Source of the DNA: Naegleria gruberi
Lineage: Eukaryota
Length of the DNA: 64,000 nucleotides
Direction: 5' to 3' (one strand)
Assembly (NCBI GenBank): GCA_000004985.1
Contig: GG738878.1
The notes beneath the pieces were generated by a model. It did no database searches, was not told the DNA's origin, and was given only the letters and a program-made list of their open reading frames with translations. Positions 14,448 to 32,776 of this stretch are shown piece after piece (the stretch's first letter is position 1; every line of letters begins with the position of its first letter). Made by a program: the position numbers and the translations under genes.

Positions 14448-16097
14448 TTATTTAAGAAGCTTTTGAGTTTCGAAAAAGTTACCATGGAAACCAAAAGGTA
14501 CTCTTCTTGGTAGCTCAATATTCACTAATGGTGTGTTATTCATTGTCTTTCCATCGAATACAAACACTGTGGAAGAATTGGAATGTTCATGGTAGGCATA
14601 ACATACAATGTAGACATCATCCTCTTCTTCAGATCTTGGTATGATTGAAACTTCTCCAATCATTCCATTGTTTGGAATGGTAATTGTTTGGAATGCATTT
14701 CCTTTTTCCAAATCAACTTTGGCAATTGAATTGGCAACGAATAGTTCTGATTTTTCAACTACTAAACTGTAGTAGAAAAATCTATTCTTTTGACCAGTGA
14801 TTTCTCCTCTTACGACAGGGAACTCTCCAGAGGGTAATTGATTTCCGTCGAGGGTTTTTAAGAAACCTTCTGAAATTAACTTGCCACTTGTTAAGTTCAG
14901 AGTGTATTCATATGGGAATGGTTGCCCTTTTGAAAAATCAGTCATTGAGAATGATTTTTGAACGTGAACCAATATCTTAATCAATAAATCATCACCCTCT
15001 CTTTCTTCATAAGCATTAATATAGTGAAAGGCAACACCAGTTTCAGCTTCAAAGAATTGTATCTTGCTCGACTTGCCATCGTACAATCTTGGGAAGACAG
15101 CAATCTTGGTTGGTTTGGTATCATCGAATACGATTGGATTTTCACCAGTTAGAACCTTCTTGACATCCAAAATCAATGGATAAAATCCAACAATTGAATA
15201 ATTTTCAGTAATGACCATATCATGAATCATGCAAACGTATGGAGTTTCTTCCTTGGTGAACTCATGTGAATGAATAATATCAAGATTCTTATCAGTGACA
15301 CCATATCTGAAAGAGGTTCCTCTAGGATTCAATTCATATCCAAAGAAAATCATCTCTCCATTTCTTGGATCAATTTTTGGATGAGCAGTGAAATTATGTT
15401 TCAATTTTCCTTTAAAATCAAACTCTCCAACTGTTTTCAAATCTGGGAATGTAACTTCCATTGGTTTGTGTCCTTCTTCGAGTGCCAGGAATTTACCACC
15501 ATGATAAATGATATTAGTATTTGCAGCACCACCTCCCTTCTTAAGTGGTCCATTCAATCCTCTATACATTCTCTCGTACAAGTAATGATAGGTATATTTG
15601 AGAAGTGGATTAATGCCACCATCCATGATCATACTATGAGCGAGAGGTCTTCCATTCTCCTTCTCTTGCAAGTACTTTTCAGTTTGGACGAATCTATTTC
15701 GATACGAACAATTTCCATCCTTGAATTCAAGTGCATGAATATGACCATCACCTTCAAACCAATGCAAATTATAGAGTGGATTAAATTGTGGATTTGGTCC
15801 AATTCTTGCATAAATTCCATTCAAATCCTTTGGAATTTCACCACTAATAATCGGAAGCTTTGTGATGGTCAATTCATCATGAATCGGAGCAAAATTACCA
15901 TTCATTATTGGATTGTTTTTAATACCGCTCTCATAGGCTTGATTCTTATAATTGGAGAAGAGGAAATACTTGAAAACTCCCTTGATCCACAATAGGACGC
16001 CATTTAAAACTGTCCAGCAGAGGATTAACAAGTATCGTAGTTGATCAATTAGAGAATTTTTGGCGGGAGAAGTTGGTTGATCATTGGATGAAGCCAT
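14448..16097 (-). CDS. Carotenoid cleavage oxygenase, RPE65/CCD family, with an N-terminal transmembrane segment.
   Basis: Intronless ORF of 549 aa. Family motifs present: FDGDGHIHALEF, IIYHGGKFLALEE, FTAHPKIDP and MIHDMVITENY. Confidence 0.75.
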   Translation of the reverse strand: MASSNDQPTSPAKNSLIDQLRYLLILCWTVLNGVLLWIKGVFKYFLFSNYKNQAYESGIKNNPIMNGNFAPIHDELTITKLPIISGEIPKDLNGIYARIGPNPQFNPLYNLHWFEGDGHIHALEFKDGNCSYRNRFVQTEKYLQEKENGRPLAHSMIMDGGINPLLKYTYHYLYERMYRGLNGPLKKGGGAANTNIIYHGGKFLALEEGHKPMEVTFPDLKTVGEFDFKGKLKHNFTAHPKIDPRNGEMIFFGYELNPRGTSFRYGVTDKNLDIIHSHEFTKEETPYVCMIHDMVITENYSIVGFYPLILDVKKVLTGENPIVFDDTKPTKIAVFPRLYDGKSSKIQFFEAETGVAFHYINAYEEREGDDLLIKILVHVQKSFSMTDFSKGQPFPYEYTLNLTSGKLISEGFLKTLDGNQLPSGEFPVVRGEITGQKNRFFYYSLVVEKSELFVANSIAKVDLEKGNAFQTITIPNNGMIGEVSIIPRSEEEDDVYIVCYAYHEHSNSSTVFVFDGKTMNNTPLVNIELPRRVPFGFHGNFFETQKLLK

Positions 16098-23242: not shown

Positions 23243-24769
23243 TTATTTAAGTTTGTTCGGAAATCTGAAATTCATTCTATCAACATAGGTCCATAACTTC
23301 CTTGGATCCAACTGCTTCTCAATTGGACACTGATATTTCCATTTAGGAATGGATCCTTCTTGGAACTGAGTAGAAACTTCTAAATTACAACACCAAGTAT
23401 TGGCCAACAACTTTACAGTAGCACAATACAGAGCTTCATTCATTCTCAATCGTTGCTGAGTGGGAAGATAAAAGTACTCAATCATTGATCCAAATGGTCC
23501 AGAGATATTTCTAAATTCCTCCTTACTCGGTCTTGCTGAAAGCTTTTGCTTTTTAATGATTGACTCAACTGGTAAACCACATCCTGCCTTCTTTGAATAT
23601 TCTCCCAGCTCGTTCAGTAATTGATTGCAAACATCTTTTGAAATTGCATTCTCAATCACAACATATCCATATCTGTGAAAGAATTCCAAATGTCTTTGAG
23701 TGACAAGTTGCGAATGCTTGTTATACATTTCATCAAATTGAGATGATGGATCTTCATTAGTATTCTTTGAGAATAAGGTCTGAGAATGATTCTTCTCCCT
23801 GAATAGACATTCTCCGAGTGGAGTGAGCGGAATTAAATGTTCTGGATTGTTTGGATCCATGAATTTCTTTTCTAATTGGAATTCTGAACTGAAATCGTTT
23901 GGAGTTTCAAAGGTTTTTCTCTTCACACGTAAAGATTCGACTGTTTTCATATTGATTGGATGAGCCATTTCGAATGCATGATAGAAAACACATCTGGGAT
24001 AGCTCATATAGTTGAATTTTGAATTCTGATGTGGCATTCGAATATCAAAAAAGATGTAATCACCTCTTTGAATGGGTTCGTATGGAATCTTATCGTGTTC
24101 CTTGGCTATCTCTTTCAAATACTTGATATATTGGTCGACTTGATCTTGATCTGAATCAATTTCTAATCTAGTCACTTCCTTAGATGGTGGAGACCAATTT
24201 TTAGGTACTCGCTTGACCTTTCGTATTAATTCGAATAATGGACTATCCTCTTTATCATTCTCAACAAATTTCACATGATACGGACTCACCCAAGGTGATT
24301 TCTTCCTCATCGACTCTCCTTCCCTAAACTTTTCATCACAAGCTTCAAAATAACCATCAGCCGAAACTGTTGGAAATCCAGGAATAATCTCCAAACTACC
24401 TTCCTCCTTACTCTTATCCAAATCTCCATCCGAAAGACACAACATGGACTGGAAAGGTCTAAATCTATCCAATTTCTCATACTCATACTTTCTATTCAAT
24501 TTACCCCAGAGATTATACGGCCACGAGTCGAGATGAAGACCAGTTCCAGTTTGCCTCAAAGGAGTTGTGCTGGTTGTTGAAGACTTTTCGGATTCAACAA
24601 TTGCTGAGCTGGATGAGGTGAGAGTAGATTGTTTTAATTTACGTTTCTTTGTGGCTGTTGCATTATCTTGGTTTGGTTGTGATTTCATTTTTTTTGGTTT
24701 TAGTTTTTTTGTTTTTGCGAGTTCTAGTAAAAACTGGAAGTGATATTTCACCAACTTCATAAAATTCAT
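23243..24769 (-). CDS. Phytanoyl-CoA dioxygenase (PhyH)-like 2OG-Fe(II) oxygenase family protein.
   Basis: 508-aa ORF. The PhyH-like N-terminal signature FFHRYGYVVIENAISKDVCNQLLNELG is present. The assignment is moderate. Confidence 0.5.
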   Translation of the reverse strand: MNFMKLVKYHFQFLLELAKTKKLKPKKMKSQPNQDNATATKKRKLKQSTLTSSSSAIVESEKSSTTSTTPLRQTGTGLHLDSWPYNLWGKLNRKYEYEKLDRFRPFQSMLCLSDGDLDKSKEEGSLEIIPGFPTVSADGYFEACDEKFREGESMRKKSPWVSPYHVKFVENDKEDSPLFELIRKVKRVPKNWSPPSKEVTRLEIDSDQDQVDQYIKYLKEIAKEHDKIPYEPIQRGDYIFFDIRMPHQNSKFNYMSYPRCVFYHAFEMAHPINMKTVESLRVKRKTFETPNDFSSEFQLEKKFMDPNNPEHLIPLTPLGECLFREKNHSQTLFSKNTNEDPSSQFDEMYNKHSQLVTQRHLEFFHRYGYVVIENAISKDVCNQLLNELGEYSKKAGCGLPVESIIKKQKLSARPSKEEFRNISGPFGSMIEYFYLPTQQRLRMNEALYCATVKLLANTWCCNLEVSTQFQEGSIPKWKYQCPIEKQLDPRKLWTYVDRMNFRFPNKLK

Positions 24770-24847
24770 TAAACATATTCGATGAAAATTCGATAGAAAA
24801 TGGTAAATGGAAGAAAATGGTTAAAAAGGTATTTTACTTTCGAATAT

Positions 24848-25153
24848 TTATTTAGTCAACTTGGCATTATTAATAACAGATAATGGTTCATTTACATCGA
24901 AAACCTTTGCTTCTACATGATCCACTCCAAAATTCTTCAATCTTGCAGTATGCATTTCAAGATAGGCACGTGCAGTTTCTTCACTTTCGAATAAATAAAT
25001 TCCACCAGCTTCTTGGTTCTCCTTACTTTCGGTCCAAACTTTCCACAAAAATCCAGGTTCCCTATTGATCGATTCTGCTAATCCTTTCAACTGCTCCGAC
25101 ATTTCCTCACCGAAAGGTCCATTAAATTTAAAGTGCACTTGCAAGAGTTTCAT
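24848..25153 (-). CDS. YdhR-like small protein, a dimeric alpha/beta-barrel putative monooxygenase. This is a bacterial-type family.
   Basis: The 101-aa [46 protein letters not shown]...[43 protein letters not shown] is near-collinear with enterobacterial YdhR (MATLLQLHFAFNGPFG...[10 protein letters not shown]...GGIYLF...HTARLK...[10 protein letters not shown]). The comparison is from memory. Confidence 0.7.
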
Positions 25154-25321
25154 TTTGTTTTGTTTTTTTTGTTTTTTCTGCTTTTTATTTTCAAGATCTT
25201 TTGATTTGGTAATGGTGTTTGAGTGGAGGAAAATTATTTATCCATTGTGAATGGATATTAGAATTTGTACGTGCGTGTTATTTATTGTTAAGAATTCGGC
25301 GAAATAGTTTTACAATTTTCA

Positions 25322-26296
25322 TTATTTGCTTGCAGAATTCTGTGCAACAGATTTGAATGAATCGAGCTCAAGTAATTCTGGATATTCATACTCAATTCTC
25401 AAATCTCTGTAATTGGCTGAGTAGTCTGTTTGTGAAAGGAAGCCGTGTAAGGAGAGTGCTTGCAATTTCAAATGTTCATCAAAACGATAGGATAATGGAG
25501 TACCTTCTAGAGCTTGTCCATTTTGTTTGATACATTCAAAAATAAAATTCCAATCACTTGTAATGTCGTTGTCAGCATAGCTGAGAATATTTCCTTGATT
25601 CTTGACACATTTCAATACAAATTCTCGATCCTTCTTGAGCTCATCTGATGCAAACAAGAAAGCTCTTTCATCATTTAGAGTAGCTCTATAGACAATCTCC
25701 TTATCATTTCGAAACTCCTCACAAACATGTTCCAATAGGGAGCCACATCTTCCAATTGATTTCAAAACAAAATCTCGATCACTTCCTAATTCAGGAACAT
25801 AACCCATTGCAAATCCAATGACATATTCGACATGGTTTCCTCCTTGATCAACAGCTTTCAGTAACAATTCCCTTGTTCTGACTCTTGGTGGAGTCAACTT
25901 GATAACATAACCATTCACCTTTAAACATTTCAACACAAATTCAGCATTCATTTTCAAATCTAAAGAAGCAAATTCAAATCCCTTTCCATCAGGCGTTTTG
26001 CTAATTAATTCCAAGATGAATTCCTGATCTTCTTTCAAATCAGATGAAATACGATGCATTATCCATGGCGAATCAAGGACTGCAATGGTTACAATTTCCC
26101 TGTTATTTCTCAATTCTAGAGAAGCAAATCTCAGTAATTCTCCTTTTTTGGAAACTGATTTTTTAACATAATCATAATCATTGGAAAATTCTATTGGTAT
26201 AAATTGTGTATTGATGATTTCCTTGTTGTAAATCCATCGGATTGTTGACTTGGAAATGGTTTCAAATTTTTTCTTTAAATATGTATTAGAAAACAT
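25322..26296 (-). CDS. DUF4116-repeat protein of 324 aa.
   Basis: It has repeated modules of the form FASxELKxDREFVLKCVKxNGxxL (ASLELRNNREIVTIAV, ASLDLKMNAEFVLKCLKVNG, ASDELKKDREFVLKCVKNQG). Confidence 0.6.
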   Translation of the reverse strand: MFSNTYLKKKFETISKSTIRWIYNKEIINTQFIPIEFSNDYDYVKKSVSKKGELLRFASLELRNNREIVTIAVLDSPWIMHRISSDLKEDQEFILELISKTPDGKGFEFASLDLKMNAEFVLKCLKVNGYVIKLTPPRVRTRELLLKAVDQGGNHVEYVIGFAMGYVPELGSDRDFVLKSIGRCGSLLEHVCEEFRNDKEIVYRATLNDERAFLFASDELKKDREFVLKCVKNQGNILSYADNDITSDWNFIFECIKQNGQALEGTPLSYRFDEHLKLQALSLHGFLSQTDYSANYRDLRIEYEYPELLELDSFKSVAQNSASK

Positions 26297-26471: not shown

Positions 26472-28177
26472 CTATTCTTCTTCCTCCTCATATGTTTCTT
26501 CTTCTTCAGCAACAACTTCTTCCTCATTCAAAGTTAATTGAGCCTTTCTATTTTCCCAAACAAGAGTAACTTCAACATCTGAGAATTCTTCATCTCTACA
26601 TTCAGATTTAACATAGAATGTGTAATCTCCTTTTGGAACTCTTCTTCTTGTACCAGTAAATACATAGAGACCATCGCATTTGATTTCCAATTCTTCACAA
26701 CTTAATTCAAGATAACTGTTGAATTTGTCCATATCATCGTGAATCATTCTCAATGCAATGAGAACGTCACAAGTTCTGTCGACTGAAAGTGTGAATTGTT
26801 GAGTGAGAATGCATTCACCTTCCTCATTTTCACAAGTTTCGTCCTTTTCATCATGTTTGAGAATTTGTCTATAGGTAGGGAAATAGGACGATTGGTGAAC
26901 GTTGTGCAAGAGTTTTGGACTGAATTGATATCCGAATGAATTCTCGTCCTTATAGAAACATTCAATATCCACAATGTGGCCAACTGTCATTCTGGAGAAA
27001 CAATTAATAACATCATCAAAATGCATCCAAAAGACACCGTCATCCTTTTCTGCCTTATTTCTCTTTCTTCTTGATTTTGCATCAGTTGCTGTATCCACAA
27101 CAGGCAAAAGAACTGTATCTTTACACAACTCCTCAATGAGTTTTGATTGTCTAGTTACTCTCAGATTGAGTTCTCTCTTAACTTTTGTTGTCATCTCCTT
27201 AGAAGTATCAGACCAAGCTCCTTTCCATTCAGTACAACCCCAAGGATTTCTCAATCTAACCAATTGATTTCCATTGTAATCACAGGCATCAATGAGCGCA
27301 TAGTAATGTCCATCAACAATACCACTCTCTGTGGTGTTGGTATCACCGAGTCCAGATTCATTTTCTGAAGCAAAACCAATTGCATTACCATTCTTTACTC
27401 CTTTAAGAATTGATTTCCAAATGTCTTCTTTACACAATCCACCAAAAGGTTCTTCTTCTACACCTTCTTCTTCTTCCTCAGCAGTTTCCTCTTCTTCCTC
27501 TTCAACATACTCGTATTCACCTTCTTCCTCTTCTTCGTATTCTTCAGTTTCTTCTTCTTCTTAGCTTCCTCTTCACAATCACATTCCTCTTGGGTACAGG
27601 AAACGTGATTCTTCAAATATTCGAATTGAGGAAGGCAACCTGTGAAAATTTGAATTCCCAAAGTACCATCTCCACCATCAGTTTTATAATAACTTCCAAA
27701 AATTTTGGCAATCGCCTTCTCAACAATGGTAGGCCACAACTCATTTGGATTCTTTGATCTAACACCCAACAAGGATCCATCAGAAGAGACTGGAACATAA
27801 TCATCAATAGTGACATATCTCCACTCGTTTCTCCAGAACAATCTCAATGTATATTGTCCCATCTCAACATTTGCCTTAACAAACAAGTGAGCAATAATGT
27901 GTGGATATCTGGCAACAGCTGCTAACGAACTCAAAATCCAACAATTTCCAAAGCTTCCCTGAGCGATATCATTCACATCAATGCCATCACAAATAATCTG
28001 TGGATCATCACAAAGTTCGGAGAGTCTCATAAATCCATTATAATTCATACCTTCAAGATCTTCGTAGCCAAAAGATGTTTCATCGGCTGGAAAATCCAAA
28101 TCAACATACGGCTCTTCAAGAGGAGCCAAGTCTTTTTGCATTGAATAAAATTCCTCCTTACTTTGATAGGTTGTCAT
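26472..28177 (-). pseudogene. Calpain-like cysteine protease, paralog 2. The reading frame is broken once inside a (GAA/AAG)n tract near 27540-27575. Either a homopolymer assembly error or a pseudogene.
   Basis: ORF 27458..28177 carries the Cys motif GSFGNCWILSSLAAV. ORF 26472..27437 carries the His motif DGHYYALIDA, the Asn motif RLRNPWG and a C2-like tail. Both frames are E/K-rich across the junction. A 1-nt indel in ...GAAGCTAAGAAGAAGAAGAAACTG... would fuse them. No GT-AG intron fits. Confidence 0.7.
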
Positions 28178-28331: not shown

Positions 28332-31300
28332 TTATTTTTCGTGGAGTTTAGAAGAAACCCAGAATAAGGAATCTTCATTTTCTGGCATATCTTCATTAAT
28401 CTTTTCCAAACACTTCTTTCTGATAAGTTGATAAGAGGCCTTCTCCTTTGATTCTGCCATATAGCTCAATACATCCTCATTCTGATCCATAAATTCTATG
28501 GCTTCCTCAAATCTCAAGCTGAGGAATAATTCTCTCAGAGCTTGATAACCAGAGCACATTTTGATAAGATCTGGATTTGCATGTTCCTTTCTAGAGAGCA
28601 CACTATAAATATTGATTGGAATGGCCTTTCCCTTAACACAAACCACATCAACCCATTTACACAAGAATTTCTTGTGAACCTTTGCATAGACATTCTCACT
28701 GATCATTATTGAGGAACCATACATGGAATTGAGAGATTCGAGACGGGATGTTGTGTTGACTGTATCACCCAGACAAGTATAATTCATTCGGTCAACAGAC
28801 CCAATATTACCTATGAAACATTCTCCTGTATGAAGTCCTATTCTTATTTTCATATTAAAATTGTCAAAGGTTCCAGCATTCTTGTTAACACATATTAATC
28901 TCAACTTTTCCTTCCACTTGTTATTGAATGGAACTAGGCCCTCCTGACAAGCAAAGGCACTTTCAACAGCAGCTAATTCATGATCTCTTATAGGAACAGG
29001 ATCATTCCAAAAGGCCATAATTGAATCCCCAATAAATTTATCTACAGTTCCTTGGGTTTTCATGATAATATCTGTCTGTTGAGTGAAAAAGTCACACATT
29101 AGCTCTACAAGTGTATCAGGCGACATTTTCTCAGTCATGTTTGTAAAACTTGCAATATCAGAAAAGTAGAGTGTGACAGTTTTCCATTGAACACCCAACA
29201 TGGCTGGTTGTTTTGACTTGACAATAGTGGCAACAATATCATATGGCACATACTTGGAGAAACTATTCAAGCCTTTGCTCATTTGATTGACTGAGGAAAT
29301 AATGGAACGCACCTCTGAGAATGTAACAGGTACCTTGTCATCGTAACCTGTTTCTATATTCATCTGAGCAAGGTTGTCTACTCGTTTCTTCAATGAATTC
29401 AATGGACTTGTAATCAGTGCACTGACACAAATAGATATCATAACGGAAACTAAAACCAATACACACGACACGGCAACTACTGTGTAGCTTGTTTCTTGAA
29501 ATAGTGAAATATAACTACGTCTTGATGTTGAGTGGATAAGTAGCCAGTCTAATCCATTTTCAGTAATTGGCTCCACAGATACAAAATGAGCCTCACCACT
29601 AGAATCAACCAGGTAAATATTATTCGGAATGTTTGTCACATTAAGAGTGCCATTGATGCCATAATCTGTAAAAAGTTTTGTTGCAATTGAGGAGATGACA
29701 GTGTCATTTGCATTCTGTGCGAGAAGTAATGTCTGAGAACCTGACGAGTAGACCTGTTTCTGCTCTATTCCTTTACTAGATCCTAAAAGAGCTCCATCTT
29801 GTCTGATAACAAAAACTCTGTGATGATCCTCCTTGGCATATTCAGAATATAATTTCGTAGATAATTCAGAAAGTGAAAATATTACTGTCAAAACTCCTGT
29901 AAATTTGTTGTTGATATAGTAAGGGATAGAACAACCAATAGCCCATTTACCTGTAATAGTAATCTGGAAAATACTTGACCATACTGCAGTGTTGGAAGCA
30001 TCTAATCCTTTGGCCATTCTCTGTTCATCTATTGCTTTTAACTCATTCACACTAGAAAGAAGAACACCAAATCTACTTGATGATAATGGCATATTTCCTT
30101 CATAATATTGAATTTTTCCATTAGTCATCCTCCAAAAGTGCAACTTGTTTGTATTGTTATTTACAATGTACCTTTCTACTAATGAACCAGTTGGTGAATA
30201 GCTAACGTCAACCCCAGAATAATTTCCGTATAAATCTACAGAAAACATTTGATAAAACATTTCAGATTGAGCCACAGTATCTCTGAATAATTTCCTTAAC
30301 ATAGATTGATATCTTTCATTGGTTAGTGTATCTGTCAAGGAGAGGTTGGGCTCCAATTGAGTGAGTACAACTCTTGCCAAGTTTAACACACTCGGAGCAT
30401 AGTTGACCACTGAGGTCATCCAATTAGTTTTCATAAGATCCACTAGCTCTGAATTTGAATCAAATGCAATAGTATTAACTACTTGATACTCAGTGGTTAA
30501 ATACCCTGCGAGCCAAACTGAAATTCCAGTCACTACCACAACAGAAAGAAATACAATGAAAAGTACTATTTTGATGCTACAAACATAGTCGAAGCATTTT
30601 CTCTTGAAAACTTCCTTTTCTTCTCCAATGGATTCACTAACAAATGGCTCGGAAACAGATCTATTGGTAGAAACAACACTATTTCTATGATTATTTACAG
30701 TTCTTATGGATCTGGGTTGATCCTCACTACCTCTGTGGGCCATGTTTCTGTTGATATGATTGACTGTACCAAAAGAAAGTTGTAATGATTGAGGTCTATT
30801 AACAGAATTCCCATTTCTTTTTTTGTTGACTTGACGATTTGGAACCTTCTTTAAAACCTGTACCATAGTTGATGCAGAAGGAAGATCATCAACGATAATT
30901 TCGTTCTCCTCTTTAAAAGAAACTTGAACATTGTTCGCAGTAAGAGGTTCTGACCCTATTTCTTCTCTTGGAGTTCCAGGAGAGACCGCCACAATTGGGG
31001 AATTGGTTAAATTTAGTGCCTCTGACTTTTGTACTGGTTGAGAAGAAGATCTTCTTCTATTAGGATCATATTTTGTGGGTGGAAATGCAAATGACATGTT
31101 TACATCTTCCTCTCCGTCATGTTCCTCCATAGACTTAATTTTCTTTCCCAATTGTTTCTGAATAGTAAGAGGATCTACAACCAAATTATTTCTTGATGGT
31201 GAGGGAATGAGTTTTGGAGCTCTTGGTTGATCTCCTTCTTGACTTTGGCTCTGCCAACTTCCTACAAGCTGTTTTCTTCTAGAAGAATTAGCTCTAAACC

Positions 31301-32558
31301 TGTCATCACCATCGTCTTGTAAGTCGTCGCTCAACTCTCCTTGTTTAAAGAGCTCTACTATTGATTTTGCAGAGCCCATCATACTGGATTTCCTTGAAAT
31401 TCCACTAGTGTTTGACAAGGAGTTTTCATTGCCAAGAGATTTTCCAAAATATGAATTAACTGGAAGAGAATGAGTAATTCTTTCGGATGTGTCTGGTGTT
31501 GCTAAATGTATTGGATTGGTAGAATTAAAAGAAGGAGTAAATGAAGTACCAGTTGAGTGAACATCTGTCATTAGAGAATTGGGAGTGCTACAAGAAGGAA
31601 TGTGTTCCTCTACTAAGGCATTCAAATTAATATTTGTAATGGCCTCATCAGGATTAATATTCTCTGCAAATGAAAATTCATTCTTGAAATTATCCATCTC
31701 CTCATGTACCTCTTGATGATCATCTTGAATGGTAGAGACAGTCAGTATACTATCGAATTGTTGTTTCTCTACCTCATCATGAATATTAGTTTCATTCGAA
31801 TGTTCATTCTCAAGACTCTTCAATTCCGATGATAGAGTGGTATTATTATTACTATTTTCTAAATTAATACTATTACTACTAGTAGTCTCCACAATCGAAA
31901 CATTTACATCTTGCTCATCACCATCACAAACATCTTCAAATCTAGTTTTCTTTTTTATCAAATCATTCAATTCAACCTTGACCGTCGGAGGAGTACTATG
32001 AAGAATACTTTTCAATTCACGATGACTCGATTCTTGTTGTTCTCGTTCTTGTCCTTGTCCTTCCACAACAGCTTTACCGAGTGTCCTACCTCGAACATTG
32101 TTTTGTTGTTGATTTAAACTTGGTGCTTTTGATTCATTTTTTGCTTCTCTTGCAAAAAGATTTCGCGCCAAAGAAACGGAAACTGTTGGCGGCTGATTAA
32201 GTTTTGCTGATAATTCATTTTCGAATAATTCTTGTTGTTGGTGTGCTGAAGGTGATTGTGGTGGTGATTGAGGCTGGGAAGAAATGATGGTGGGTTGATT
32301 TCCTCGGAAGCTTCCATTCTTGGGTGAGTTGTTTCTAGAGCTCGAATTACTACCACTTGAATTGTTGTTGGTCATTGAGGTTATTCTATTGAGTTGGAGT
32401 TGTTTCTTAGGTGATGTAGGCGGTATTGATGATGATTGGCCTGAGGAGTTTGTTGTTTGTTGATTGGAAATTATACTGGGAGAGCTAGTGTTATTGTTGT
32501 AGGATCGCCTACCATCACTAGGTGTTCGTGTATTTCGATTATTCTTCATCATTGGCAA
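28332..32558 (-). CDS. Sensor-type class III adenylate/guanylate cyclase, 1408 aa. It has about 640 aa of N-terminal low-complexity sequence, then TM1, an extracellular domain of about 300 aa, TM2, a HAMP-like linker and the cyclase domain.
   Basis: Intronless 4.2 kb ORF. The transmembrane helices are IVLFIVFLSVVVVTGISVWLAGY and VVAVSCVLVLVSVMISICVSALIT. The cyclase core contains FSDIASFT, FIGDSIMAFWN, IRIGLHTGECFIGNIGS and CLGDTVNTTSRLES. Confidence 0.8.
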   Translation of the reverse strand: MPMMKNNRNTRTPSDGRRSYNNNTSSPSIISNQQTTNSSGQSSSIPPTSPKKQLQLNRITSMTNNNSSGSNSSSRNNSPKNGSFRGNQPTIISSQPQSPPQSPSAHQQQELFENELSAKLNQPPTVSVSLARNLFAREAKNESKAPSLNQQQNNVRGRTLGKAVVEGQGQEREQQESSHRELKSILHSTPPTVKVELNDLIKKKTRFEDVCDGDEQDVNVSIVETTSSNSINLENSNNNTTLSSELKSLENEHSNETNIHDEVEKQQFDSILTVSTIQDDHQEVHEEMDNFKNEFSFAENINPDEAITNINLNALVEEHIPSCSTPNSLMTDVHSTGTSFTPSFNSTNPIHLATPDTSERITHSLPVNSYFGKSLGNENSLSNTSGISRKSSMMGSAKSIVELFKQGELSDDLQDDGDDRFRANSSRRKQLVGSWQSQSQEGDQPRAPKLIPSPSRNNLVVDPLTIQKQLGKKIKSMEEHDGEEDVNMSFAFPPTKYDPNRRRSSSQPVQKSEALNLTNSPIVAVSPGTPREEIGSEPLTANNVQVSFKEENEIIVDDLPSASTMVQVLKKVPNRQVNKKRNGNSVNRPQSLQLSFGTVNHINRNMAHRGSEDQPRSIRTVNNHRNSVVSTNRSVSEPFVSESIGEEKEVFKRKCFDYVCSIKIVLFIVFLSVVVVTGISVWLAGYLTTEYQVVNTIAFDSNSELVDLMKTNWMTSVVNYAPSVLNLARVVLTQLEPNLSLTDTLTNERYQSMLRKLFRDTVAQSEMFYQMFSVDLYGNYSGVDVSYSPTGSLVERYIVNNNTNKLHFWRMTNGKIQYYEGNMPLSSSRFGVLLSSVNELKAIDEQRMAKGLDASNTAVWSSIFQITITGKWAIGCSIPYYINNKFTGVLTVIFSLSELSTKLYSEYAKEDHHRVFVIRQDGALLGSSKGIEQKQVYSSGSQTLLLAQNANDTVISSIATKLFTDYGINGTLNVTNIPNNIYLVDSSGEAHFVSVEPITENGLDWLLIHSTSRRSYISLFQETSYTVVAVSCVLVLVSVMISICVSALITSPLNSLKKRVDNLAQMNIETGYDDKVPVTFSEVRSIISSVNQMSKGLNSFSKYVPYDIVATIVKSKQPAMLGVQWKTVTLYFSDIASFTNMTEKMSPDTLVELMCDFFTQQTDIIMKTQGTVDKFIGDSIMAFWNDPVPIRDHELAAVESAFACQEGLVPFNNKWKEKLRLICVNKNAGTFDNFNMKIRIGLHTGECFIGNIGSVDRMNYTCLGDTVNTTSRLESLNSMYGSSIMISENVYAKVHKKFLCKWVDVVCVKGKAIPINIYSVLSRKEHANPDLIKMCSGYQALRELFLSLRFEEAIEFMDQNEDVLSYMAESKEKASYQLIRKKCLEKINEDMPENEDSLFWVSSKLHEK

Positions 32559-32776
32559 TCAAGTATAATGAAAGGAGTTTGGGATTCTTGGCTCAATGAT
32601 AAAGTTCTCTCTTTTTTTCTGTACAACTTGAAGGATGACATTAAGAGTTTGAAAGCAATCTAGCGTTGTACAATAAAAACTCACTACATCTCATAATTTT
32701 CAACAACCTTTTTTATCCTTACTTGGGAGAGATCTGTAAACCTGAAAATTTCTTACAAGGAAAGTGCGAAAGTAAT

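Follow-up and report, generated by a model that had tools for sequence, protein, structure and literature searches.

A bacterial-type ydhR gene very probably acquired by horizontal transfer and domesticated in Naegleria gruberi

The closest described counterpart of the gene discussed here is ydhR of Escherichia coli (b1667, P0ACX3), whose product is represented by the structures 1WD6, 2ASY and 2HIQ and is described as a 'putative monooxygenase'. The 'monooxygenase' name of the YdhR family derives from fold similarity; in the literature, where the term used is 'putative', no biochemical assay was found for any YdhR and there is no known substrate. In E. coli, ydhR appears in sigma-S in vitro and metal-stress transcript lists, and nothing comparable is known in Naegleria. 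A member of this family is encoded in Naegleria gruberi, within a 64,000-nucleotide stretch of contig GG738878.1 (hereafter the window), by a short open reading frame (ORF) referred to here as ydhR (Table 1). This gene, as XP_002675461, has been independently listed, from a phylogenetic analysis, as derived by lateral gene transfer (LGT), with Citrobacter rodentium ICC168 (Gammaproteobacteria) as its nearest phylogenetic neighbour (Clarke et al., 2013, Genome Biol 14:R11, Additional file 2). The transfer is already catalogued and is an ordinary case of LGT from bacteria into an amoeba that feeds on them; 2.7% of the genes of N. gruberi have been reported as homologous to bacteria (as cited in PMC9928731). 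The gene is not mentioned in the Naegleria pangenome and N. fowleri supplements, where the one match to 'ydhr' is a substring of a protein sequence.

The evidence described below supports with high confidence both the identity of this gene and its origin by horizontal transfer and domestication; that confidence covers identity, horizontal origin and domestication, while the chemistry of YdhR, which we infer, stands outside it. In the proposed sequence of events, a single ydhR gene would have entered the nucleus of the N. gruberi lineage from a gammaproteobacterium, the donor most likely being a member of the Enterobacteriaceae near Citrobacter and Escherichia and plausibly a prey bacterium. 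Only the coding sequence would survive from the donor, now as an intronless gene in an array of host genes, with the Shine-Dalgarno sequence lost, a host-type A-rich leader in its stead and the synonymous sites fully rewritten to host codon usage. Purifying selection has kept the protein, and YdhR is made in axenically grown amoebae. Of these points, family membership, fold, integration, amelioration, constraint on the sequence and translation are shown by the data below.

Family membership and bacterial relatives

The ORF, as read at its position in Table 1, allows no N-terminal extension, and its product is 100% identical to 'predicted protein [Naegleria gruberi]', a database entry on a 395-kb scaffold. 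It matches PF08803 (ydhR) with E=3.6e-44 and 149.1 bits, against a cutoff of 27.1, over profile positions 1-95 of 96, and the NCBIfam equivalog NF008333 ('monooxygenase') with 165.7 bits, against a cutoff of 103, over profile positions 3-100 of 101. The alignment with the E. coli YdhR structures 2HIQ, 1WD6 and 2ASY is gapless over 98 residues at ~77% identity (E ~1e-46), and all five sequence blocks that had been quoted in a preliminary description of this DNA, in which the intronless ORF of 101 residues was called essentially collinear with enterobacterial YdhR, are present. The protein is a single domain of full family length (101 residues, for a family of ~100), and the monomer model has the ferredoxin-like beta-alpha-beta-beta-alpha-beta fold of the solved YdhR structures. 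Across 66 diverse representatives, 18 family positions reach a conservation of 80% or more, and Naegleria YdhR keeps every one of them; conserved positions of the family include F8, G34, W37, K38, W40, E42, G50, G51, Y53, F55, Y64 and G76, and 32 columns are invariant in an alignment of Naegleria YdhR with 35 homologues. Only three of its residues (K9, H79 and E81) are near-unique among 105 close homologues. Judged by sequence, the match of the ORF to the YdhR family is far beyond chance, and the ~77% identity to dimeric E. coli YdhR (two chains per PDB entry) suggests that the Naegleria protein is likewise a homodimer.

When a protein database was searched with Naegleria YdhR and the best 120 of 505 matches were listed, every named match was bacterial, the sole eukaryotic one being the N. 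gruberi protein itself, and the closest named relatives were those of Citrobacter and Escherichia, at 75-81% identity. In GTDB, where each prokaryotic species was represented by a single genome, Citrobacter sp. ANG330 comes first at 81%, and further Citrobacter and Escherichia genomes rank next at 73-77%. The YdhR family is small: an exhaustive search of 1.84 billion cluster representatives gave 147 clusters at E<=1e-10, and 554 when the threshold was relaxed to E<=1e-3. These 554 clusters, formed at 50% identity, include Proteobacteria, Firmicutes, Actinobacteria and Acidobacteriota, and all sampled representatives that carry names are bacterial, in agreement with the earlier statement that the family is overwhelmingly so. 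An independent eukaryotic copy was not found in JGI/ENA metagenome contigs, which held nothing above 78% identity and no eukaryote-like contig; the metagenome ydhR loci of lowest GC are Colwellia-type genes. The next-best matches (77-80%) were considered as sequences of other amoebae and rejected, their contigs having 50-53% GC and a bacterial gene layout. Nowhere in the genomes or metagenomes searched was there a bacterial sequence closer than 81% to Naegleria YdhR.

In a bootstrapped neighbour-joining (NJ) tree of 62 sequences and 101 columns, Naegleria YdhR nests fairly deep inside the Gammaproteobacteria, so that it lies in a bacterial clade and has bacterial closest relatives. Its mean identity is 74% to Citrobacter/Escherichia, 68% to other Enterobacterales and 69% to Vibrio/Alteromonas/Aeromonas/Neisseria, and four residue states are shared exclusively with Citrobacter/Escherichia, as against two and one with the other two groups. 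On these comparisons the donor is taken to be a gammaproteobacterium, and most probably one near Citrobacter/Escherichia (Enterobacteriaceae), since both the identities and the exclusive shared states favour that group.

A few large E. coli plasmids (232-420 kb) and one 74-kb Aeromonas plasmid carry homologues of 68-75% identity, and ydhR is occasionally mobile among bacteria; four records in 'phage' collections also carry ydhR and are mostly chromosomal or unannotated. A plasmid or phage as vector was considered and rejected, as nothing ties the plasmid or phage copies to Naegleria. Some bacterial YdhR proteins are tandem double-domain forms (214 residues in Serratia quinivorans; 267 residues), and others are C-terminal fusions to an N-terminal region of ~240 residues (338-342 residues in an alphaproteobacterial metagenome-assembled genome).

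Integration, expression and age

By blastn, Naegleria ydhR shows 73% DNA identity to E. coli ydhR, and this resemblance to bacterial DNA does not reach beyond the start and stop codons of the coding sequence, with neither flank matching any bacterial locus. Shine-Dalgarno motifs of the GGAG type precede the bacterial homologues and none precedes the Naegleria gene, whose leader, compared with the leaders of 27 host ORFs, is 85% A at positions -20 to -1. There is no sigma-70-like site on the minus strand of the upstream spacer and no terminator-like hairpin or intrinsic terminator at the downstream spacer, an Rfam scan gave nothing relevant around ydhR, and the surroundings of the insertion, searched for repeats, target-site duplications and remnants of mobile elements, yielded nothing but a low-complexity, A/T-rich similarity between leaders. 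The leaders of ydhR and of its downstream Gig2-like neighbour are mutual best matches among 20 compared, with a local score of 21 versus at most 17 for the others, and both end ...AAAACAAAA...ATGAAA; this likeness could reflect a local duplication of the leader or promoter, or simply low complexity.

The composition of the gene is that of the host. The GC content at third codon positions (GC3) is 0.32 in ydhR, 0.28-0.40 in its neighbours and 0.46-0.57 in the closest bacterial genes. In a log-likelihood ratio (LLR) of host versus enterobacterial codon usage, ydhR has z=-0.27 and ranks 11 among 27 host ORFs, and its bacterial homologues score -0.50 to +0.02, all outside the host 5-95% range of 0.16-0.42. 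In the assembled sequence, ydhR is physically linked to host genes on one contiguous stretch, and it bears the marks of domestication in host-like composition and signals, selection and expression. This supports the view that ydhR is integrated among genuine eukaryotic genes and is no contaminant. The preliminary description had read this locus as a candidate transfer of a bacterial YdhR-like gene into a eukaryotic neighbourhood, with a composition and codon usage like those of its neighbours and ameliorated to the host; the transfer is borne out by all tests run, the neighbourhood by the presence of eukaryotic genes less than 170 bp away, the likeness by the GC3 and the z value, and the amelioration by GC3 and codon LLR within the host range, an A-rich leader and the lack of a Shine-Dalgarno sequence.

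A published proteome of N. gruberi NEG-M, obtained from whole cells by label-free quantification (PMC9035749, Supplementary file 2, sheet 'NG cu BCS raw'), documents expression of the protein. In this dataset, XP_002675461.1 was quantified in all six samples (log2 label-free quantification intensity 26.4-27.1), with 3 unique peptides, 46.5% coverage, a Q-value of 0 and 17 tandem mass spectrometry (MS/MS) counts (PMC9035749). The reported mass of 11.588 kDa equals that calculated for the product of the ORF. One combination of three tryptic peptides (14, 18 and 15 residues), all Naegleria-specific, alone gives 47 of 101 residues, or 46.5%, and Naegleria and E. coli YdhR have zero tryptic peptides of at least 6 residues in common. 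Because the protein was detected with matching mass and Naegleria-specific peptides, the gene is translated in axenically grown amoebae.

The proportion of synonymous differences (pS) between Naegleria ydhR and the nearest bacterial genes is ~0.8-1.0, which is saturated, and third-position identity to the nearest bacterial ydhR is 0.32-0.46 versus ~0.25 by chance. The nonsynonymous distance (dN) is 0.17 between Naegleria and Citrobacter, 0.15 between Escherichia and Citrobacter and 0.25 between Escherichia and Salmonella. Saturated synonymous sites together with host-like codons imply that the transfer was not recent, and the low dN together with the conserved positions kept implies that ydhR is no decaying relic; these distances indicate that purifying selection has preserved the protein.

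As for other members of the Heterolobosea, N. fowleri, N. lovaniensis and Willaertia contribute no homologue to the best 120 of the 505 matches, though their proteomes are in the database. By tblastn, the regions up to 10 kb from the Gig2-like orthologue contain no ydhR in N. fowleri, N. lovaniensis and Willaertia, and neither do those up to 10 kb from the pair formed by tubulin cofactor D (TBCD) and a nucleotide cyclase in N. lovaniensis and Willaertia. Between N. gruberi and N. lovaniensis, the RPE65-TBCD-cyclase microsynteny can be recognised; rearrangement of the block from one species to the next means that the exact empty site cannot be defined and that missing synteny is weak evidence. 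It is more likely that the gene was acquired within the N. gruberi lineage than at a deeper level, because the dN to Citrobacter is about that of E. coli and no copy lies within 10 kb of the anchor genes. The transfer had previously been called a candidate ancient one; the gene is old enough for full amelioration, but that does not establish an ancient age, and the anchor regions of the other heteroloboseans contain no copy.

Several points weigh against the account favoured here and against its detail. NJ bootstrap support is below 40% at every node above Naegleria, too weak to name a donor genus, and Naegleria YdhR is sister to Citrobacter plus Escherichia in only 20% of the replicates; since the sister group is so poorly supported, the basis for assigning the donor is sequence similarity, the residue states held in common and a single published tree. 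The absence from other eukaryotes covers the best 120 of 505 matches and the anchor regions, with the 385 weaker matches outside. In the one proteome, the abundance of YdhR was unchanged under copper limitation, hence giving no physiological cue. Naegleria strains have historically been fed enteric bacteria, and it could be proposed that the ORF of an enteric bacterium (e.g. from food) was stitched into a Naegleria scaffold by contamination or a chimeric assembly join, as the 75-81% protein identity to Citrobacter/Escherichia YdhR and the 73% DNA identity to E. coli ydhR might suggest. This proposal is effectively refuted, and we give it next to no credence: by GC3 and codon usage the gene belongs with the host, beyond the range of all bacterial homologues, the similarity stops at the ends of a coding sequence that has no Shine-Dalgarno sequence, there are no gaps and eukaryotic genes lie within 170 bp on both sides. 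Moreover, no bacterial sequence above 81% identity exists in the genomes and metagenomes searched, and an independent laboratory detected the protein, with peptide arithmetic that is Naegleria-specific. Equally hard to credit is vertical inheritance, whether of an old eukaryotic YdhR lost nearly everywhere else or with transfer from eukaryote to bacteria, even if the view of eukaryotes rests on the best 120 of 505 matches and a 'ydhR precursor' is annotated in Debaryomyces hansenii. One bacterial order is matched at 75-81% identity, far more than expected after over 1 billion years of divergence, while the vertically inherited Gig2-like neighbour is only 52-59% identical within Heterolobosea. 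Every named family member across the 554 clusters is bacterial, Naegleria lies inside the gammaproteobacterial part of the tree, other heteroloboseans have no copy near the anchor genes, and the D. hansenii case is itself described as bacterial horizontal gene transfer (HGT).

Horizontal transfer being accepted, what would differ is the present state of the gene or the timing of its arrival. That ydhR is a dead or decaying relic, an ORF from a real transfer now non-functional and intact by chance, would suit a short ORF in a family without known function, with no known phenotype or regulation in Naegleria and no copper response; it is very improbable given that the synonymous sites have turned over fully with a dN of only 0.17, that the 18 conserved positions, the 32 invariant columns and the full family length are retained, and that the protein could be quantified in every one of the 6 proteome samples. 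A transfer before the Naegleria or Heterolobosea radiation, with later loss or movement elsewhere, departs from the lineage-specific transfer in timing only. It seems unlikely, though less so than the explanations above: complete amelioration, saturated synonymous sites, an NJ position fairly deep in Gammaproteobacteria without firm placement in any modern enterobacterial genus, and genomes so heavily rearranged between species that missing synteny carries little weight all speak for it, and it is opposed by the lack of N. fowleri, N. lovaniensis and Willaertia homologues among the best 120 of 505 matches, the absence of a copy up to 10 kb from either anchor (Gig2-like or TBCD-cyclase), a dN to Citrobacter that equals the Escherichia-Citrobacter distance, and residue states shared specifically with that clade.

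The surrounding locus

The window averages 34% GC and contains zero N bases in its 64 kb. In it, ydhR sits in a head-to-tail array of host genes with spacers of ~160 bp, its neighbours being on the minus strand as well. As the preliminary description had it, ydhR stands between a PhyH-like oxygenase and a DUF4116 protein, 159 and 168 bp away (Table 1).

Table 1. Position and nature of ydhR and nearby features in the window.
Feature	Position	Strand	Description
ydhR-like coding sequence	24848..25153	minus	Intronless, ATG to TAA, 101 residues plus stop; NAEGRDRAFT_69451, XP_002675461.1, EFC42717.1, UniProt D2VKN0
Upstream spacer	25154..25321	minus	168 bp, DUF4116 stop to ydhR ATG; presumed promoter and A-rich 5' leader
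Downstream spacer	24689..24847	minus	159 bp to Gig2-like ATG; presumed 3' untranslated region
Downstream neighbour, Gig2-like/PhyH dioxygenase (NAEGRDRAFT_58505)	23243..24688 (ORF 23243..24769)	minus	Pfam; 481-residue model
Upstream neighbour, DUF4116 repeat protein	25322..26296	minus	324 residues; PF13475 E=1.2e-77, 9 repeats
ydhR leader as compared	25148..25191		Best match of the Gig2-like leader
Gig2-like leader as compared	24683..24716		Best match of the ydhR leader
AATAAA hexamer	24852..24847		Overlaps ydhR stop codon
Calpain upstream of DUF4116	26472..28177	minus	Two ORFs
Frame change in calpain	27460..27590 (near)		Inside GAA-rich acidic stretch

The hexamer at the ydhR stop codon is weak evidence in AT-rich DNA. 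The start of the Gig2-like gene was assigned from the annotated model of 481 residues versus an ORF of 508. Its collinear orthologues are 59% (Willaertia magna), 53% (N. lovaniensis) and 52% (N. fowleri) identical, and it is a vertically inherited heterolobosean gene. A Pfam survey of the long ORFs in the window shows eukaryotic-type genes only, apart from ydhR; they include a BET bromodomain protein, RPE65, two calpains, an Aa_trans transporter, a nucleotide cyclase, tubulin cofactor D and a kinase, as well as 60S ribosomal protein L4, TLDc, Mgm101 and ENTH. Both immediate neighbours of ydhR are uninterrupted ORFs, the annotated Gig2-like model being collinear with its ORF, and the TBCD ORF has 925 residues versus ~1190 in orthologues, marking a split gene a few kb from ydhR. 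The flanking genes had been described as intron-containing; this is not borne out for the nearest neighbours, and split genes (TBCD, calpain) occur a few kb off.

The Gig2-like/PhyH (DUF1479-type) dioxygenase seems circularly permuted relative to the Pfam models. Its N-terminal half matches PF07350 positions ~234-396 (the HxD..H core), and its C-terminal part matches positions ~39-173 together with PhyH 1-30. The same permuted order occurs in homologues from Willaertia and N. fowleri, an N. gruberi paralogue and environmental sequences, so that it is a feature of the clade and no assembly artefact. The calpain upstream of DUF4116 is divided between two ORFs that match Peptidase_C2 positions 1-171 and 175-273, the split coinciding with a change of frame. 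No plausible GT..AG intron of normal size is visible at the split, for which a frameshift, an error in sequencing or a tiny, unusual intron may account.

In N. lovaniensis, RPE65, TBCD and the cyclase are adjacent, with a retroelement (RVT_1/RNase_H) after the cyclase. In N. gruberi (14448..16097, 28332..35554), the TBCD-cyclase pair is inverted with respect to RPE65, with a block of ~12 kb between them that contains an ORF of unknown nature, a calpain, Aa_trans, the Gig2-like gene, ydhR, DUF4116 and a calpain. A 4956-bp contig of an ENA assembly encodes a TBCD 99% identical to that of the window, which indicates that another public dataset contains DNA of an N. gruberi strain nearly identical to this one, and such DNA could independently confirm the ydhR locus.

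Proposed function and comparison with known systems

By homology with E. coli YdhR, the Naegleria protein would be a small cytosolic homodimer forming a dimeric alpha+beta-barrel. Its described fold relatives in the dimeric alpha+beta barrel/ABM superfamily are SnoaB (3KG0), ActVA-Orf6 (1LQ9), YgiN (1TUV), IsdG/MhuD and LsrG. By analogy with such proteins, we tentatively suggest that YdhR may be a cofactor-independent oxygenase, or a related enzyme converting small molecules, that acts on an aromatic or quinol-type compound; a pocket lying between the sheet and the helices would take up the substrate, as is the case for ActVA-Orf6, SnoaB and YgiN. A stress-related binding role, or another role typical of the fold, is about equally possible. 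A more specific and rather doubtful scenario is that ydhR was taken by N. gruberi or a recent ancestor of it from Citrobacter/Escherichia-like prey after the enterobacterial genera had diverged, is confined to that lineage and is constitutively expressed to inactivate a redox-active aromatic (quinone, phenazine or polyketide-like) of prey or soil microbes. If this were true, Naegleria would be a clean eukaryotic setting in which to find the substrate of YdhR, with one copy of the gene and no operon around it.

The conceptual gain is small, as bacterial LGT into Naegleria is well documented and this gene already figures in a published list. The value of the locus lies in being a clean, fully domesticated single-gene transfer into a phagotrophic protist, with a presumed host promoter, host leader, host codons, preserved sequence and detectable protein; ydhR could serve as a positive control when pipelines for HGT detection are assessed, and likewise for contamination filters, which might discard such genes by mistake.

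A further case has been described in yeasts, where a D. hansenii gene annotated 'protein ydhR precursor' was attributed to bacterial HGT (PMC2459174, PMC2715888). This would be a second, independent transfer of the same family, if the gene is a PF08803 member; its reported length of 776 residues is unfitting for a YdhR of 101 residues and is absent among the best 150 family representatives. Compared with its counterpart in E. coli, the Naegleria gene is nuclear and has host codons, an A-rich leader and no Shine-Dalgarno sequence, and its protein lacks one residue at the N-terminus, differs in the C-terminal tail and carries the near-unique K9, H79 and E81. In relation to the LGT catalogue of Clarke et al. 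(2013), ydhR fits the usual pattern of a single metabolic gene among vertically inherited genes. Its entry there is one spreadsheet line, in which family, amelioration, constraint, synteny and protein expression are undiscussed; to this the present analysis adds the family and fold assignment, the analysis of amelioration and constraint, the synteny checks and the link to the proteome.
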